Assembly (NCBI GenBank): GCA_014905635.1
Contig: JABVCE010000007.1
Location: 1,178,001-1,242,000 of the forward strand
Direction: 5' to 3'
Source: Scenedesmus sp. PABB004
Lineage: Eukaryota
Length of the DNA stretch: 64,000 nt
A model generated the notes under the pieces. That model searched no databases. It was not told the DNA's origin and was given only the letters and a program-made list of their open reading frames with translations. Shown here piece by piece: positions 3,724 through 64,000 of the stretch (the first letter of the stretch is position 1; each line of letters starts with the position of its first letter). A program made the position numbers and the translations under genes.

Positions 3724-4432
3724 GGCCGCGCCCGCCGGCGGCGCCGCCGCGAGGCCGGGGCGCGGCGCGGTGCGGTGCGTGGCGCCGCAGCAGCGGCAGA
3801 CGCTGCGCGGGCCGCGGGCCGCGGCGCGCGCCCCGCGCGGCGCGAGCCGCGTGCAGGCTGGGGGTATTGCGTCGGCACAGCGCGCGGCGATCGCGTGCCC
3901 GGTGCGTGTGCGTGTGTGTGTGTGTGTGTGGTTGCAATTGCTGACTGGCGTTGTGCGCGCGCGCGCACTCCGCGCGTGTGCTCGTGCCTCGCTGCTGCGC
4001 AGCAGCGTACTTGCGGCACTTGTTGCTTGGCCGCCCCTCGCGCCGGCGCGGCGCTGCTCGCCGCGGCGGCAGCCTGACGGCGGGCGAGGCGGCGGCGGCG
4101 CCTTGACGGGGCGGGGCGGGGCGCCGACTCGGTCGTCAGTGACGGGCAGCATGGCATGGCGTTTCGCAGCAGCAGCGGGCCGTGGAGCGGAGGGGCGAGG
4201 GCGCGGACGGCGTACACACTGCACAGCGGCGCCGTGTGTGGTTTGTGGCCGCGGAGGCTCTGCACAAAACGCGACCGGCGGCACGCAACGGCCCGCGTTG
4301 GGCCCAGCTCCGGCGCATTTTGACGAGCAGTGGTGAGGGCTGCAGGCTGCAGGCTGACTGAGGCCGGAGGACTGGCGCCGCTCAACCCAGTGAGCGGCGC
4401 GCGCGTGCGCAGCGGGCGGGCGGGCGCGTGCG

Positions 4433-9645: not shown

Positions 9646-12746
<3,101 letters not shown>

Positions 12747-20079: not shown

Positions 20080-22193
<2,114 letters not shown>

Positions 22194-31816: not shown

Positions 31817-32846
31817 GGCGTCGACCACCGCGCGGGGGGCATGTGTGTGTGTGTGTGTGTGTGTGTGGCTGCGCACGAGGGACCCGCGCACGTGCACGCG
31901 AGGGGGGCGGCGCGCTGCAGCAGCAGCGCCTGGGCGAGGAGGGGCGTGCTGGCTGGGGCGGCGGGCGGCTGCAGGCGCAGGCCCACGTGCGCGCTGTCGC
32001 GCGCGCCAGGCCCGCCACCAGAGCTTGTGAGCTTGCGTCAGACGTTGTTGCGCCAGCCGCTTGTGACGGCCTCGCGTCCCGAGGCGCGTGCGCTCCGAGA
32101 ATCAACGGGCCGCGGCTGCCTGTCTGGCGTCTGCTGCCGCTGGCTGGGCGGGGTGTCATCATTTTGGGCACGTGCGGTTGGTCGCATTTGCTTTGCTTTG
32201 CTTGCTCTCTCTCTCTCTCTGAGGAAGAGGAACCCAACCGCCCCGACCGCCTCGTTCTCCCGGCCGCCCTCGATCGCGCACGCATGCAGTCAAAGCGATC
32301 AGCGCGCGCAGGCCAGAGTGCAGCCGCCGCGCAAGTGTGGGCGGTTCCACACGCAGGGTCCGCGCGCGCGCGCCGCGCGCGCTGGCGACGTTCACAGACC
32401 AACCAAGTTCGGGGCCGCAGGCAGCGGCAAAAAACAGAGGCGGCGCCATCCGCCGCCAGCCAGCGCGCGGGTGGGCCCGGGCGCGGCGGCGACGGCGGGA
32501 GAAGGTGGTGCGATGCAAAGGGGGCGCGAGGCGGGTGGTGATCAAGGCGTGCGCACGCAGTCCAGCGGAGCAGAGGTCAGTCGGGAGTGCTGCCACGGGC
32601 ACCCTGGGGCAGTGAAGAAGGCACTCGCGTTCGTGAGAATGGTGGTGGTGAGGCCGTGGGCGTTGGCCCAACACAAGACAAGGCAGTGATGCGAGGGGAC
32701 CGCCCCGGCGGTCGTCAGCTGCTGCGCTTATATGGCAAAGAAGAGCGCTCGCGTCACACCGCGCCGCTCCCTCGCTATCTGCTGCCGCGGCGCAGCCCGC
32801 GCGCGCGGCGGGCCGCGCCGCGCCGCCCCCGCGCGCCGGCGCCGCA

Positions 32847-56500: not shown

Positions 56501-57504
56501 ATGGCGCTCCTGTCCAGCGCCAGCGCGCAGGGCGCGCGGCAGGCGCCGTGCGGCGTGTCGGCGGTCCCGGCGGCCAGGTGCGACTCCCGGGCGCGTCGTC
56601 GGGCGCGATCGGGGCGGCCCGGCGCGGCGGGAGCGGGTCGCGATGCGCGGCCGGCCCCTGCGCCGCGCCTGCGGGCCTGCGCGCCGCGCGCGCTCGGCTG
56701 GCGCTGCCGAGCGCCGTGGACAGCCTCCCGGACCTCCGCCCCACCCGCCCTGCGGCCGCGTCGCGCCGGCCAACGCAGGGCGCTGCTCGCCCGGCGCCGG
56801 GCGGGCCCGCTGGCGCGCGCCAAGCCGCTGAACAACAACAGCTTTGACGCCGAGGACGACCTGGACAGCGAGCTGGCGGAGGAGCTGTCGCGCTTTCGCG
56901 GGCGCGAGGCGTGGAGCCAGGTCGCGCAGCACCTCGACCTGGTGTGGAAGGTCGGCCGCGTGAGTGCCCCCGGGGGGCTGCGACGGGCGCTGCGGGAGCA
57001 GCGGCCGCCGTGCGCCGCCGCGCGGCAGCGGCCGACGCGGTCGCGGCGGGGAGCGAGTAGCGAGCGGCGGCGGGGCAGCAGCAGCGGCGCCAACCGCCGC
57101 CGCCGCGCCCGCGCCCGCGCGCGCAGAGCCGCGGCAGCCGCGCGACGTGCACCTGCTGCCAGGGCAGCGGCGAGGAGGAGTGCGCGTGGTGCCACGGCAC
57201 GGGCGCGCTGATGGTCGGCGACACGCTCTTCCGCTCGGCCGCGGGCGGCAGCAACTGCCCCGTCTGCAAGGGCAAGGTGTGCGCGCGCGGCGCCGCGCGC
57301 GGCCGGGGAGCCGGGGCCCGTCCGGCGCAGCGCAGCGAGCGTCTTGGGGCGCGGCGCGGCGCCGCGCCGGCCGCCTCACGGCCTCACGGCCTCACCCGGC
57401 CGCCGCCGCTGCCACAGGGCCACGTCGCGTGCGAGAATTGCCGCGGCACCGGGTACCGCGCGGCGTGGCTGCAGGGCCCCGACCACTGCCGCAACCCCGT
57501 GTGA
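56501..57504 (+). CDS. DnaJ-type Cys-rich zinc-finger protein, probably plastid-targeted
   Basis: Four CxxCxGxG motifs: CTCCQGSG, CAWCHGTG, CPVCKGK|G and CENCRGTG, followed by YRAAWL. Confidence 0.85.
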
Positions 57505-58304
57505 GGCGGGCGGCGGCGCGCCGCGGCAGCGGGCGGCGGCGTGCCGCAGCAGCGAGCGGCGGCGCGCCGCGGCAGCGGCGCGCAACCCGTTCTGTCCCTT
57601 CGGGCGCCCAGCGGCGCGGGGCTTGTATCACCACTGGACCGGACGCGCGGGGGGCAGGGGCCCGGCGCGGGGCGGGGGCGCTGCTGAAACGCAGCCTGTA
57701 CGCTAGTACGCCTGTAGAGGGGGCTTGTGGGGGCTGCCCTTGCAGCCGCGGCCGGGGGCGCACGGCGGGGGTGCCGCGCGCCGACGGATGTGTATTGGTG
57801 ACTGTTTTAGCACCTCGCCTCGCACCGCGCGAGGCGCTGCATCGCGCGCTGTCAACAGCGCCGCCGCGCGACCTGGCCAGCGGGGCTGCGCCTGGCGGCG
57901 GGCGGGCGGGGCTCAGCCAGGCTGGCGCGAGCCCGGCATGCGACCTCGGTCGAGCGAGAGCGTAACCCTCCAGCCCGTGCGGCGGTTGCACCAGAGCTGC
58001 GTCACGCCCCTGCAGCGCGCGCCCCAGCGCGCCCGCTGCCATCCTGCGCGCGCCAGCGGCCAAGGTTCCGACATCGGTCCTGATCCGGACACCCCGCCCC
58101 CGCCCCAGCCGTGTGTCACACGAGCGGCTGCCGCCGCGGCGCGCCTCGCGACTCGGCCTGCCGGCCGCCGGGCCCCCGCCGCGCGGCGCCGGCGCGACGC
58201 GCCTCGGGGCTCGGCCGGCCGGCCCTCCCAGGGCTCGGGGCGGCGCGGGCGCTCAGCCCAAGGGTTCGGAGGCTCCGGAGCGTTCCGGTCACGCGGGCGG
58301 GGGT

Positions 58305-61300
58305 TTAGGGCTCGAGGCGCTTGGGGTCGCGTGGGAAGAGCGAGGTCTTGCGGATGTTGTTGAGCCCCGCGTAGAGCATGACCACGCGCTCCAGCCCCAC
58401 GCCGCACCCGCCGTGCGGCGACGCGCCGAGCTTGAACGAGTCAATGTAGGCCTGGATGGTCTCCAGCGGGATGCCGCACGCGCTCGCGCGCGCTGCGCGA
58501 GGGGAGAAGGGGGGCGTGTGGGCGCGGCGGCGCGTGGTGTCGTCAAGCGCGGCGCGCGGCGGGCGAGCGGGCGGCGGCGCGCAGTGCGCGGCGGCGCGGG
58601 CGGCGCGGGCGGCGCGCGGCGGCGCGGGCGGCGCGGGCGGCGCGTTGCGTGGGGCGCCGATCCGCGCCGGCGCACCCGCGAGCAGGTCTGCGTCGTGGAC
58701 GCGCTGCGCGCCGGAGATGATCTCCTCGCCGCGGATGAAGACGTCAAAGGAGTTGGAGTAGGTCGGGTCGTCGGGGCAGGGCATGGTGTAGAAGGGGCGC
58801 ACCTGACCGCACGAGCGCCGGGCGGCGCGGCGCGCGGTGCGCGGGCGGCGCGGTGCGCGGCGCGGTGCGTGGCGGCGCGCGGGCGGGCGTGTGGGCGGGC
58901 GCGGGAGTGCGTGCGGGCGCGTGGGTGGGTGCGGGCGCGTGCACAGGGCGAGGGCGGCGCCGCGCGGCGCGCGCCCACGCCGGCGCCGCGCCCGCAGGAC
59001 GCCGCCGGCGCCGCGGGAGGTGCGTGGGCGTGTGCGCGCGACGACGCGTGAGCGCAGGGGCGAGCGTGGGAGTGCGTGGGCGTGCCGGGGGGTGTGGGCG
59101 CACCGCTGCGGGGTAGCGGTGGAGGATGTAGAAGTCGGTGCCGTGCTTCTCCCTGACCAGGCGCCCCAGGCGGCGCTCGAGCTCGGTGTTGAGGTCGCCG
59201 AGCGGGTCGACGTCGGTCAGGCCGTCGTCGCGCAGCATCTGGATGCCCTCTGCACGGGTGGGCGGTGCATGGCGGTGCACGTGGGGCGCGTGGCGGAGTC
59301 AGTGGGCGGAGTCGGTGGTGCGAGTGCGCGGCGCCGTGCAGCAGCCGCGGCCCCCGCTGGCTCGACGCCGGCGCGCGGCGCGGCGCGGCGCGGCGCGCAC
59401 CCGCGAAGGTGAGGCGCAGCGGCTTGGCGGCGATCGGCTCGAACGGGTACTGCGCCGCCACGGCGGCGAGCTCGGGCGCGTAGCGCGTGGCGAGGCCGTC
59501 AAAGATGGCCATGAAGAGGCGCTCGATCACGTCCATGACCTGGTGGGTTTGATGGAGAGGCATCAGTGTTTGTTTGATGGTATTCGGTTGATGACCGCGT
59601 TGATTGAATAATGGTTTTGATTGAGTGTTGACCGGCGAGCGCGCGGCCGGGCGGCGGCCGGCGAGGGTGAGCCGGCTGGCGCCGCGCGCGGCGGCGGCGC
59701 CGGCACGCGCGGCAGGCAGGCGGCAGCGGGCAGCGCGGGCGCGCGGGCGCGCCTCTGAGTAGTGTTCGTAGATGGCCATCTCAAAGTCCAGCCCCGTGAA
59801 CTCACACAGGTGGCGGTGCGTGTAGCTGTTCTCGGCACTGCGGGGCGTGCGACCGGCGCGCGGCGCGGCGGGGTGGGGCGGGCGGGCGGGGCGGGTCGGC
59901 GCCGCCGCGCGCGCGCGCCACCGCCCGCCGCGCCGCGCCGCGCCGCCACCCGGCGGCCGTGCGCACCGGAAGACGGGTCCGATCTCAAACACGCGGTCCA
60001 TGTCGGCGCAGATGGCCATCTGCTTGTACAGCTGCGGGCTCTGCGCGAGGCAGCCGGGCCGGCCCATGTAGTCAAACCTGCGGCGCCGCGGCGGCGGCGG
60101 CGGTCAGCGGCGCCGGCCAGCGCGCCTGCCGCTGCCGCGCGCCGCTGCACGCCGCGCCGCGCCGCGCGCGGGCTGCGGCGCGCCTGAACACCGCCGCGCC
60201 GCCCTCGCTCGCGCCGGCGATGAGCTTGGGCGTGTGGATCTCCATGAAGCCCTGGCCCAGCAGCGCCTCGCGGAACAGCTGCGGCGGCGGCGGCAGCGGC
60301 GCAGCTGAGCGCAGCGGCGGCGCACGGCAGCGGGAGGCGGCGGCCCTGCCGCGGCGGGCGGGCGGGCGGCGGGGCGCAGCAGGCGCACCTGGCACACGCC
60401 GCTCTGCAGCCGAAAGATTGCCTGGTTGGCGGGCGTGCGCAGGTCGAGTGCGCGGTTGTCCAGCCGCACGTCCTGGCTCACCGTCACCAGCACCTCGCCG
60501 CGCTCCGCCGCCGCCGCGACCTCGGCCTGCGCGCGCGGTGCGCGGGCGCGGCGCGGCCTCTCGGCAGGCCGCCGCCGCCGCCGCAGCGCCACCGGCGCCC
60601 CGGGCGCCGTCGCGGGGCCGCGGCGCCAGGCCGTCGCGCGCGCCAGGTCGTGAGGTTGTGGAGAGGCGCGGCGTTGGCGACGCAACTCTATCAACAACCT
60701 CACGGCTTGGTGCGCGCGACGGGTCGCACCTCGCTGCGCGCCGCGTCGGTCAGCTCAAACGGCAGCGCCGCCGCGCGGCTGACCACGCGCAGCAGGTTGA
60801 CCTGCAGCTCCACCTGCGCGCGCACGCGGAGCCGGCGCCGGCGGCAGCGGCGGGCGGCGTCAGGCCATCGGCGTCCGCGCTGCTGGCCCCGCGCCGCAGC
60901 CCCGCGCCGCGCCGCAACCCCGCCGGGGCGCGCGCGCGCTCACGTCCTGCTGCGTCGCCGACTCGACGGGCGCCGCGGGCGCGACGACGACGCCGCCGAC
61001 GTCGACGATCGACTCCTTGGGCACGCCGCAGGCGTACTTGACCATGCCCTTGCTCACCGTCTCCTCGTCCGCAAACATCACCGCCTGCACAGCACGCGCA
61101 GCGCGGCGGAGCACGGGCGCATCGGCCGCCCGCGCCGCCAGCGGCGCTGCGCAGCAGCGGCGCTGCGGCGCCGCGCGGCCTGCGGGCGCGCCGCGCCGCG
61201 CGCGCCTGCACGGTCGCGGTGCGCTGCCGGATCATGAGGAACGCCGACTTGCCCTTGCCGCGCACGGTGTAGAGCCGGCCGCGCACGAGCACCTGCGCGA

Positions 61301-61872
61301 GCGGCGTGGGGCGCGGCTCGGGCGCCGCGCCGCTGGCAGCTGCGTGCCGCGCGTGCCGAGTGCCACGGATGCTGCGCGCCGCGCCGCGCCTCCTGGCCGA
61401 TGAGGTCGGGCGTGAGCTTGTCCACGGGCGTCCACTTGCGGCCGGTGACCTCGGTGCTCTGCACCATCGGGTAGTCGCCCCAGCGGCTCGCGCACGGGTC
61501 GTCCGCGTCCGGCTGCGTCGGCGCCGCCTGCTTCACGCCGCGCTGCGCCGCCTGCGCGCGCGGGTGCGGACAAGGGGGTCGCTTGCGGCGGCGCCAGCTC
61601 GCCGGCGCGGCGCTCGGCGGCCGTGCGCCGCGCCGCGCACCCGCTCTGCCTTGGCCGCCTCCTTGGCCTCCTTCTCCGCCTTCTTTGCGGCCTTGATGGC
61701 GGCCTTGTCCTGCGCGGCAGCAGGGCGCCGGTGAGCGCCCGCGGCGCGCCGCGGCGAGCGGTTGCGCCGCCGCCGCTGCTGCTGCTGCTGCTGCTGCCGC
61801 GCTGTCGGCTGGCGTCGCTGCGCCGGCTCTCACCGCCAGCTCCTTGGCCAGCGCTTCCTCCGTCGCGCTCAT
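58305..61872 (-). CDS. Cytosolic aspartyl-tRNA synthetase
   Basis: OB-fold [13 protein letters not shown]. Also [32 protein letters not shown], motif 2 [31 protein letters not shown] and motif 3 [11 protein letters not shown]. Confidence 0.97.
60631..60722 (-). ncRNA. Candidate intronic pre-miRNA hairpin
   Basis: 92-nt fold-back with about 30 paired positions in AspRS intron 60527-60729; the central arms are AT-enriched. Confidence 0.45.
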
Positions 61873-62221
61873 CGCGGCACGTGCGATCGATCTGGCGCGG
61901 CGCGCGGGCTGGCGGGCGCGGTGATGGGCGCGCCGGCGGCGTGCGGCCACGGCGGGCGGGCGGCTGCCGCTGGTGATGCAGTGCACGTCTCAAGAGCGAC
62001 ACGGACGCGGCGCAGATGATGCCGGGGCGCGCCATTGAGGCTAACACGCGCGCGCTTTTGCGCCTCGCGGGTGCAGCGCAGCCACGGGCGCGCTCACAGC
62101 GCCCCTCGCGCCCCCAGCCCGCGAACGCGCCTCGCACGGTGCGCCGGATCGAGCTGAGCGCGTGGAACCAGGCTCGCCCCCCCGCTGCAGGCCGCGGGCT
62201 GGCCCACACAGACGCGTGCCG

Positions 62222-63085
62222 ATGACCCTGGAGGGGGGCAGCGGCGCCGGCGGCGCGGCGGCGGCCGGTGCGGCGCCGGTGCCGGCGGCAGCAGCGCGCG
62301 GCAGCGGCGGCACCCGCGCCGCGGCGCCCCCGCGTCGCCAGCTCGCGGCGCGCGGGCCGGCAGCTGCGCCAGGGCGCGGCCAGCCCGCCCGGCAGCGCGC
62401 CGCCGCCCGCGCCGCCGCGCGCTCGGCGGCGCCGCGCCGCGCTCACTCGCGCGTCGCGGCCGCTCGCCCCCCCCCCCCCCCAGCGCCGCCGCCCAAGCCG
62501 CTGAACCACGGCTTCAGCGGCTACGCGACCACGGTGTTCGAGGTCATGTCCAAGCTCGCGGCCGAGCACGGCAGCGTCAACCTGGGCCAGGGCTTCCCCG
62601 ACGACGAGGGCCCGGCGGGCATGAAGGAGATTGCCTGCAAGGCCCTCTACGAGCACAGCAACCAGTACCCCAGCCTGCTGGGCGTGCCCGCGCTGCGCCA
62701 GGCGGTCGCGCGGCACTGCGCCGCGCACGGCGGCGTGCCGTGCGACTGGGCGAGCGAGACGCTCGTGACGGTCGGCGCGACCGAGGGCATCGCGTCCGCC
62801 TTCATGGGCCTCACCAACCCCGGCGACGAGGCGCGGCGCGCGGGGCGCGCGGGCGGACGCGCGGGCGGCAAGCGCTGCGGCGTCGCGGCGCGCGGCGCAC
62901 GCACGCGCCGTGCAGCGCCGCGCCCGGAGCCCCGCCCGCGCCCGCGCCCGCGCCTGGGACTGCAGGTGGTGGTGTTTGAACCATTGTATGACAGCTACGC
63001 CGGCATGGCGCAGCAGGCGCGCCGCCGCAGACGCCGCCGCCGCCGCCGCTGCCGCCGCGGCCGCCGCCGCCGCCGCCGCCGCCGC

Positions 63086-63134
<49 letters not shown>

Positions 63135-63967
63135 GGCCGGCTCCCCGCGCCGGCCGCCCGACCCCGCCCCGCCCGCCCGCCCTCGCCCCCGCGCCCGCCA
63201 CGCCCGTCCCGCACGCGCGCGCGCAGGCGGGCGTGAAGCTGGTGCCGGTGCAGCTGCAGCCGCCCGACTGGAGCGTGCCGCGCGACGCGCTCGCGGCGGC
63301 GTTCAGCGCCAAGACCAAGTTCCTGCTGCTCAACACGCCACACAACCCCACCGGCAAGGTGCGGCGGCGGCAGCGGCAGCGGCAGCCCACCGGGCGCGTT
63401 GGGGCCGCGCCGCGCGCCGGGGCCGCCGCCGCGCTCCACACACACCCGCCGCGCACCCGCCGCGCGCCGCACGGGCCGCGCGGCGCAGGTGTTCACGCTG
63501 GACGAGCTGCAGTTCATCGCGGGCCTGGTGGAGGCGCACAACACCTACGCGCTGCTGGACGAGGTGTACGAGCACCTCGTGCTGCCGCCGCACGCGCACG
63601 TCAGCCTCGCGGCGCTGCCCGGCATGGTGCGGCGCTGCGTGCGGCTCGGCAGCGCGGGCAAGACGTTTTCGTTCACCGCCTGGAAGGCGCGGCGCGGCGC
63701 GGCGCGGCGCGGGGCAGTGGGCGATGGCACGACGCGGCACGCGGCGGACAGTCGCGCGGGCCGGCGCGCGCACGCGCCCCGCGGCCCGGCGGCGACGCGC
63801 GCCGCCGGCGCCGGCGGCCGCCCGCGCGCGCAGGTCGGGTGGATGACCGGCCCCGCCGCGCTGCTGGCGCCGGTCATCAAGGCGCACCAGTTTGTGGTCT
63901 TCACCGTCGCCGCCAACCTGCAGCACGCGGTCGCGTACGGCCTGGACGAGGAGTCGGGCTTTTACCT
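62222..63967 (+). CDS. Class I/II PLP aminotransferase (kynurenine/glutamine transaminase, YbdL-like), 3'-partial
   Basis: VNLGQGFPD, NQY..G..LR, VTVGATEG, NPGDE|VVVFEP.YDSY, NTPHNPTGK, DEVYEHL and SAGKTFSFTAWK|VGW. The window ends inside an intron. Confidence 0.93.
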
Positions 63968-64000
63968 GTGAGACAGCGCGCGGGCCCGCGCGCGCACCCC

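Follow-up and report, generated by a model that had tools for sequence, protein, structure and literature searches.

The question raised by this locus is why part of an intron in the AspRS gene of Scenedesmus sp. PABB004 folds back on itself into a long stem, and whether that stem has a function of its own in small-RNA production, splicing or antisense transcription, belongs to a mobile element, or is carried along as a passenger. The whole stretch of DNA analysed, referred to here as the window, is 64,000 nucleotides long, and its composition agrees with the published 78.5% GC of this alga, whose genome is given as 39.8 Mb with 78.5% GC and 1.31% repeats in the portion of PMC12571836 used here. 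The features of the locus are collected in the table below. The assignment of the host gene is supported by protein similarity: the exon 7 translation matches a yeast AspRS chain in addition to the human one, and over the last exon there is 100% identity to an NCBI protein of 536 aa that carries the label IBI1 from Scenedesmus sp. PABB004. The homologues of Tetradesmus and Chlamydomonas run contiguously over the exon 6/7 junction, and intron 6 is therefore real.

Coordinates of the AspRS gene features and of the parts of the hairpin (positions in the 64,000-nt window; arms named in the sense of the AspRS transcript)
Feature	Position	Strand	Remark
Cytosolic AspRS coding region, 14 exons and 13 introns	58305..61872	-	Exact spliced match to a 536-aa protein
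AspRS exon 6, ending ...TDAARSE	60730..60813	-	
AspRS intron 6, 203 nt, GT-AG	60527..60729	-	Hairpin at intron positions 8-99
AspRS exon 7	60389..60526	-	Matches chain 6iy6_A, human cytoplasmic AspRS (E = 1.9e-10)
Foldback hairpin, arms and apical region	60631..60722	- (AspRS transcript strand)	92 nt; 37 predicted pairs
5' arm, with 11-nt lower-GC core CGTGAGGTTGT and 5'-splice-site-like GTGAGG	60688..60722	-	
3' arm, with ACAACCTCACG	60631..60665	-	
Apical 22 nt separating the arms	60666..60687	-	Self-paired in part (4 bp + 2 bp); 4-nt loop CCAA
Candidate 21-mer UGAGGUUGUUGAUAGAGUUGC, U-initiated	60682..60702	-	Predicted fold: 17 of 21 positions paired, 4 unpaired

The inverted repeat consists of two arms of 35 nt each, which are 86% complementary and spaced 22 nt apart. 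In the predicted fold of the transcript (minus) strand, 1x1 mismatches occur at hairpin positions 12, 16, 18 and 30 and a 2-nt bulge at 33-34, around an 11-bp core formed by CGTGAGGTTGT and ACAACCTCACG; the four mismatches and single bulge reported in the preliminary description of the hairpin are thus recovered. The structure is an unbranched single foldback, and its fold is predicted to be retained in a 263-nt intron-plus-exon context. On the plus strand, 38 pairs are formed, including three G.U and one U.G, with a 29-bp helix that runs uninterrupted from the base. The two folds reflect three transition differences between the arms, which appear as A.C on the minus strand and as G.U on the plus strand. 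The hairpin is separated from the donor of intron 6 by 7 nt and from its acceptor by 104 nt, so that it begins at intron position +8, just past the 5' splice site, as had been proposed. Were the intron retained, the reading frame of exon 6 would reach a TGA within the hairpin.

Before any function is considered, it has to be established that such a structure exceeds what base composition would produce. The GC content of the window is 76-82% throughout (about 79% overall), and absolute fold stability therefore tells little here: by raw minimum free energy the hairpin is unexceptional, its windows ranking 275 (plus strand) and 3249 (minus strand), counted from zero, among 12,782 windows of 100 nt. 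In a comparison with shuffled controls of the same dinucleotide composition, the check suggested when the hairpin was first noticed, RNAfold over 116 nt gives -69.9 kcal/mol on the minus strand (z = -5.8) and -81.3 kcal/mol on the plus strand (z = -8.3), and none of 200 shuffles equalled the hairpin on either strand. The ranking by free energy, which is uninformative at 79% GC, was replaced by a score in bits in which A-T pairs are weighted by their rarity. In this composition-weighted scan of the 64 kb the hairpin is the top inverted repeat, with 37.5 bits, followed by a GGGT microsatellite with 24.3 bits. The score was reached in 0 of 40 whole-window shuffles (maximum 30.4) and in 0 of 40 dinucleotide shuffles of 500-nt blocks (maximum 29.1). 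The inverted repeat is real, statistically outstanding and far from chance, and the view that its AT-enriched core sets it apart from mere GC-rich chance pairing holds up, with no shuffle among 80 as good.

The best explanation, held tentatively and with slightly less than even confidence, is that the hairpin is a passenger: a palindromic (foldback) insertion that is spliced out with its intron. We infer the insertion solely from length and composition. The gene's 13 introns range in length from 89 to 301 nt around a median of 129; intron 6 is 203 nt long, or 111 nt without the hairpin. The GC content of the hairpin is 68.5%, as against 90.1% in the remaining 111 nt of intron 6 and 84.8% in the other 12 introns, and only 0.6% of 21-nt windows are as low in GC as its minimum of 43%. 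Given this excess of length and the break in composition, the module resembles an addition to a normal intron. A single-copy palindromic module of about 92 nt would have joined an ordinary AspRS intron of about 110 nt, possibly by inverted duplication, by template switching or through the insertion of a small foldback element. Transcribed within the pre-mRNA, it would form a self-paired stem of some 37 bp that begins just beyond the core of the 5' splice site, at +8, leaving that site free; the extra 92 nt would be looped out, and the module would be excised and degraded along with the intron, presumably serving no dedicated function. The predicted accessibility of the donor suggests that the stem need not disturb splicing. 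The A.C transitions on the transcript could likewise be compatible with decay in the absence of selection on the pre-mRNA fold, and would not be expected under such selection.

Several features fit this account less readily. The persistence of a lower-GC core under strong GC pressure could instead reflect constraint, and an insertion landing at random would have little a priori chance of abutting the 5' splice site: by a post hoc estimate, some 1-3 positions out of about 70 that would be permissible. The lack of a target-site duplication and of a second copy in the window, as well as the low repeat content of the genome, all taken up below, also count against it. The passenger insertion has a close counterpart in the proto-miRNAs, young, lineage-specific hairpins arising by inverted duplication or template switching, which are discussed in PMC5511227. 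Like them, the AspRS hairpin is an imperfect inverted repeat of a few tens of base pairs, single-copy in the window, without conservation in the databases, located in transcribed non-coding sequence and probably neutral; young hairpins from inverted duplications are, according to the same portion of that source, common raw material and mostly neutral. The AspRS hairpin is a fresh instance of a known feature, the young intronic inverted repeat, and is apparently single-copy. If it is a passenger, the outcome thought more likely, it constitutes an ordinary example of inverted repeats arising in introns, and would be of use mainly as an insertion that is clean and datable, in a genome poor in repeats.

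Among the alternatives, the one that survives best is that the intronic hairpin is a precursor from which a Dicer-like enzyme would release small RNAs, be they a young miRNA or hairpin siRNAs, out of the AspRS pre-mRNA and with no need for splicing; we regard this as rather unlikely. By the annotation criteria used for plants and algae, a miRNA precursor folds back as one unbranched hairpin no longer than 300 nt in which no secondary stem interrupts the duplex, and its miRNA/miRNA-star duplex tolerates up to 5 mismatched positions, of which no more than 3 may lie in asymmetric bulges. The criteria further call for discrete reads of 20-24 nt from both arms, with precise processing and 2-nt 3' overhangs, and for a host that encodes Dicer-like and Argonaute proteins. 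On the structural side, the predicted fold agrees with this picture, being a 92-nt unbranched hairpin with 37 pairs. The U-initiated 21-mer UGAGGUUGUUGAUAGAGUUGC, said to lie on the 5' arm, is indeed present at 60702-60682; two of its four unpaired positions form an asymmetric bulge in the predicted fold, which would place the candidate duplex inside the limits for plant miRNAs. The hairpin is the sole one of its kind in the 64 kb, AspRS, as a housekeeping gene, is surely transcribed, and constraint could explain the lower-GC core.

The precedent for this reading comes from Chlamydomonas reinhardtii, in which, according to the excerpted text of Valli et al. 2016 (PMC4817775), nine high-confidence miRNAs, a small number, are intron-derived and processing does not need splicing. 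Since processing there is independent of splicing, a hairpin remote from the splice sites would be acceptable. As in those precursors, of which the cre-miR1157 intron is an example in the same excerpt, a short unbranched stem-loop lies in a chlorophycean spliceosomal intron of a protein-coding gene, with a U-initiated 21-mer available on the 5' arm. For the AspRS hairpin, in contrast, small RNAs, dependence on a Dicer-like enzyme and loading into Argonaute are putative. The preliminary description had drawn on Chlamydomonas as a premise; this premise does not hold, the host being Scenedesmus sp. PABB004, a member of a different, Sphaeropleales-like order. As algal miRNAs are, in the section of PMC5511227 consulted, not conserved even within the Volvocales, nothing can be transferred from Chlamydomonas miRNAs.

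The literature search weighs against the small-RNA reading, its listed matches including no miRNA, small-RNA or Argonaute/Dicer report for Scenedesmaceae or Sphaeropleales. No Scenedesmus miRNA study, and no paper joining Argonaute or Dicer with Scenedesmus, Monoraphidium or Raphidocelis, was among the matches listed; the combination of Argonaute, Dicer and Tetradesmus returned Chlamydomonas papers only, with Tetradesmus mentioned there for an unrelated intron, and the Dicers of Sphaeropleales are not treated in PMC11905391. The sequence of the arms points in the same direction, as all three transition mismatches disrupt the sense-strand stem, which mildly disfavours selection on the pre-mRNA structure. 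No plausible target of arm-derived 21-mers was found in the 64-kb window, a weak test at such a size, which covered 21-mers of up to 72% GC; the two target matches outside the hairpin, each with four mismatches, come from GC-rich apical 21-mers. In Rfam, no family, whether of intronic snoRNAs or of other curated RNAs, reached its gathering score: mir-592 and mir-1329 were matched at 20 bits, far under their thresholds of 67 and 101, and these matches are generic hairpin noise, leaving no similarity to any Rfam miRNA family above that level.

A more specific form of the small-RNA reading, also doubtful and held with slightly less confidence still, is that the hairpin is a genuine Dicer-like substrate, which would make it the first miRNA-like locus of intronic origin among scenedesmacean algae, with a core of 43-55% GC kept against the GC drive of a 78.5% GC genome by selection on the small RNA or on the stem. 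A bolder variant, with AspRS or an RNase III working on the stem so as to adjust the AspRS pre-mRNA, has no support, and its tRNA-mimic form was rejected, as described below. If the hairpin were diced, intronic small-RNA biogenesis would extend past the Volvocales into a compact alga of about 79% GC, and a natural scaffold for artificial miRNAs would become available in an industrially used group.

Processing as a tailed mirtron, which had been put forward as a further option, fails on geometry. In mirtrons, splicing itself makes at least one end of the hairpin. The AspRS hairpin resembles animal mirtrons and tailed mirtrons in lying in a short intron near one splice site. Unlike in mirtrons, neither of its ends coincides with a splice site, the distances being 7 nt to the donor and 104 nt to the acceptor; occupying positions 8-99 of a 203-nt intron, it would require trimming at both ends. 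The algal precedent, too, is splicing-independent.

A stem that modulates splicing is considered quite improbable. Such a stem could tune the adjacent 5' splice site, mask the decoy donor GTGAGG or shorten the distance between 5' splice site and branch point. The hairpin starts only 7 nt past the donor, and a good donor-like GTGAGG in its core would be buried in the predicted stem; from the coordinates, use of this motif as a donor would add 26 nt to exon 6, with a change of frame. Deletion of the hairpin in silico lowers the predicted accessibility of the true donor from 0.53 to 0.28. The same predictions, which are fragile in RNA of 90% GC, argue against sequestration of the 5' splice site, as an accessibility of 0.53 is the tied second-highest among the 13 introns. 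The remaining 12 AspRS introns do without such a stem. Because intron 6 is of ordinary length once the hairpin is subtracted, no bridging is needed, and a decoy donor would be removed more simply by a single point mutation than by a 35-bp stem. The suggestion of a splicing-regulatory stem has gained no support, as the predictions place the intron 6 donor near the top of the gene's 13 in accessibility.

It is slightly less probable again that the hairpin belongs to a family of dispersed MITEs or introner-like elements and landed in intron 6 by chance. MITEs, foldback elements and introners are likewise short, consist almost entirely of terminal inverted repeat and differ in composition from their surroundings, and the module, wholly terminal inverted repeat with a small loop, adds about 92 nt of unlike composition to the intron. 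Unlike such elements, it is without a target-site duplication, none of at least 2 nt being present at the repeat ends; the best direct match near them, of 4 nt, was obtained among 169 shifted boundary combinations and requires asymmetric ends. No second copy, even a diverged one, was found in the 64-kb window, where the hairpin, apart from itself, matches nothing better than 15 nt of CG-rich end sequence. The arms, at intron positions 8-99, do not lie at the intron ends as introner inverted repeats do, and an introner element was rejected on these three counts together. The literature search turned up no paper linking introners with Scenedesmus, nor anything of use about GC-AG introns of GC-rich algae. 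The low repeat content of the genome, 1.31% in the part of PMC12571836 at hand, lowers the prior for a mobile element.

Searches for relatives beyond the window speak against a dispersed family as well. When metagenomes were scanned for the two 11-nt cores separated by a gap, five loci of 53-73% GC with differing flanks were obtained, and these were set aside as unrelated palindromes. An exact 19-mer had one match in viral contigs and five in prokaryote genomes, with flank identities of 3-8/30 and 8-16/50 that correspond to chance; by our own arithmetic, about four such matches would be expected by chance in 596 Gb. The exact-word matches in viral, prokaryote and metagenome sequence are accordingly fortuitous, with unrelated flanks.

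The least probable reading, and one to which only a very small chance is given, is that the plus strand is functional, antisense to AspRS: an antisense transcript would contain a near-perfect helix of 29 bp and serve as structured RNA or as a dsRNA substrate. The plus-strand fold is the stronger of the two (-81.3 vs -69.9 kcal/mol, z of -8.3 vs -5.8), and all three transition differences are G.U on the plus strand and A.C on the minus strand, in agreement with the earlier remark, made in support of a possible antisense precursor, that three mismatches are G-U pairs on the plus strand. Under neutral transitions, however, three of three has a chance of 1/8 one-sided and 1/4 two-sided, and the gene-like plus-strand frames, judged by eye among the open reading frames of positions 57000-64000, are confined to the stretches below about 57,700 and above about 62,000.

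Mimicry of tRNA-Asp for autoregulation of the synthetase was rejected: such a mimic would present the cognate anticodon (GUC for Asp) in a 7-nt loop on a stem resembling an anticodon arm, and ARAGORN detected no tRNA-like feature in the hairpin, whose terminal loop has 4 nt (CCAA) and whose only GUC lies within the apical stem. As a minor observation, the 3' arm shows a weak similarity to the 3' end of intron 10, equalled by 30 of 1000 shuffles.

On the predicted protein model, on which the assignment depends and which is backed by homologues, 4 of the 13 introns of the cytosolic aspartyl-tRNA synthetase (AspRS) gene begin with GC instead of GT (G|GCGCG...). Shifting the boundaries of these four introns produced no GT-AG alternative with an identical mRNA. 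GC-AG introns usually account for ~1% of introns; if this gene is typical, their share of about 30% would lie far above that level in this 78.5% GC genome. A literature search on GC-AG introns in GC-rich algae yielded no relevant report. The features discussed here are collected in the table.

Features in and around the AspRS gene and elsewhere in the window
Feature	Position	Strand	Remarks
GC-start introns	within 58305-61872	-	AspRS introns 3, 4, 8, 10; predicted protein model mapped onto the window
Low-GC module, about 100 nt	59540-59650	-	3' half of AspRS intron 10
Inverted repeat, 37 nt, 84% complementary, pure GC	59858-59938		inside AspRS intron 9
GTGAGG, donor-like	60698-60703	-	within hairpin core
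Weak mir-9456 match	62490-62527	+	Rfam
Long microsatellites	9860-10103, 20436-20544, 3909-3954, 31841-31870		(GGGT)n adjoining (CA)n, (GA)n, (GT)n

Intron 10, the second long intron of the gene (213 nt), is sharply divided in composition, with 92% GC in its first 110 nt vs 48% in its last 103 nt, and the lowest 30-nt value in the low-GC module falls to 27%. This module is CA-rich and not palindromic, with recurring ATCAA(A)C motifs. Like intron 6, which carries the hairpin (the 92-nt foldback), intron 10 holds roughly 100 nt of low-GC sequence. The module and the 3' arm of the hairpin have the pattern GCCTCTCCA..CAA.CC.CAC in common, a weak similarity whose score was equalled in 30 of 1000 shuffles; within the window, the 9-mer GCCTCTCCA is confined to these two sites. 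An Rfam search of the module gave nothing except a snoRNA match at the noise level (19 bits).

The hairpin core also contains GTGAGG, a motif similar to the donors (GTGAG) that introns 1 and 5 of AspRS use. In the predicted fold this motif would be buried in the stem, and splicing there would add 26 nt to exon 6 and disrupt the reading frame.

The inverted repeat in intron 9 has a raw MFE (100-nt windows, no composition weighting) of about -88 kcal/mol, yet its composition-weighted score is only 20 bits; raw hairpin energies are therefore uninformative in this genome. The mir-9456 hit, whose 24 bits (E = 0.27) compare with a gathering score of 80, is probably noise. It shares part of its span with a 10-bp inverted repeat (62496-62522), and the surrounding + strand sequence looks like the beginning of an aminotransferase-like gene. 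The long microsatellites are among the few low-GC stretches of the window.
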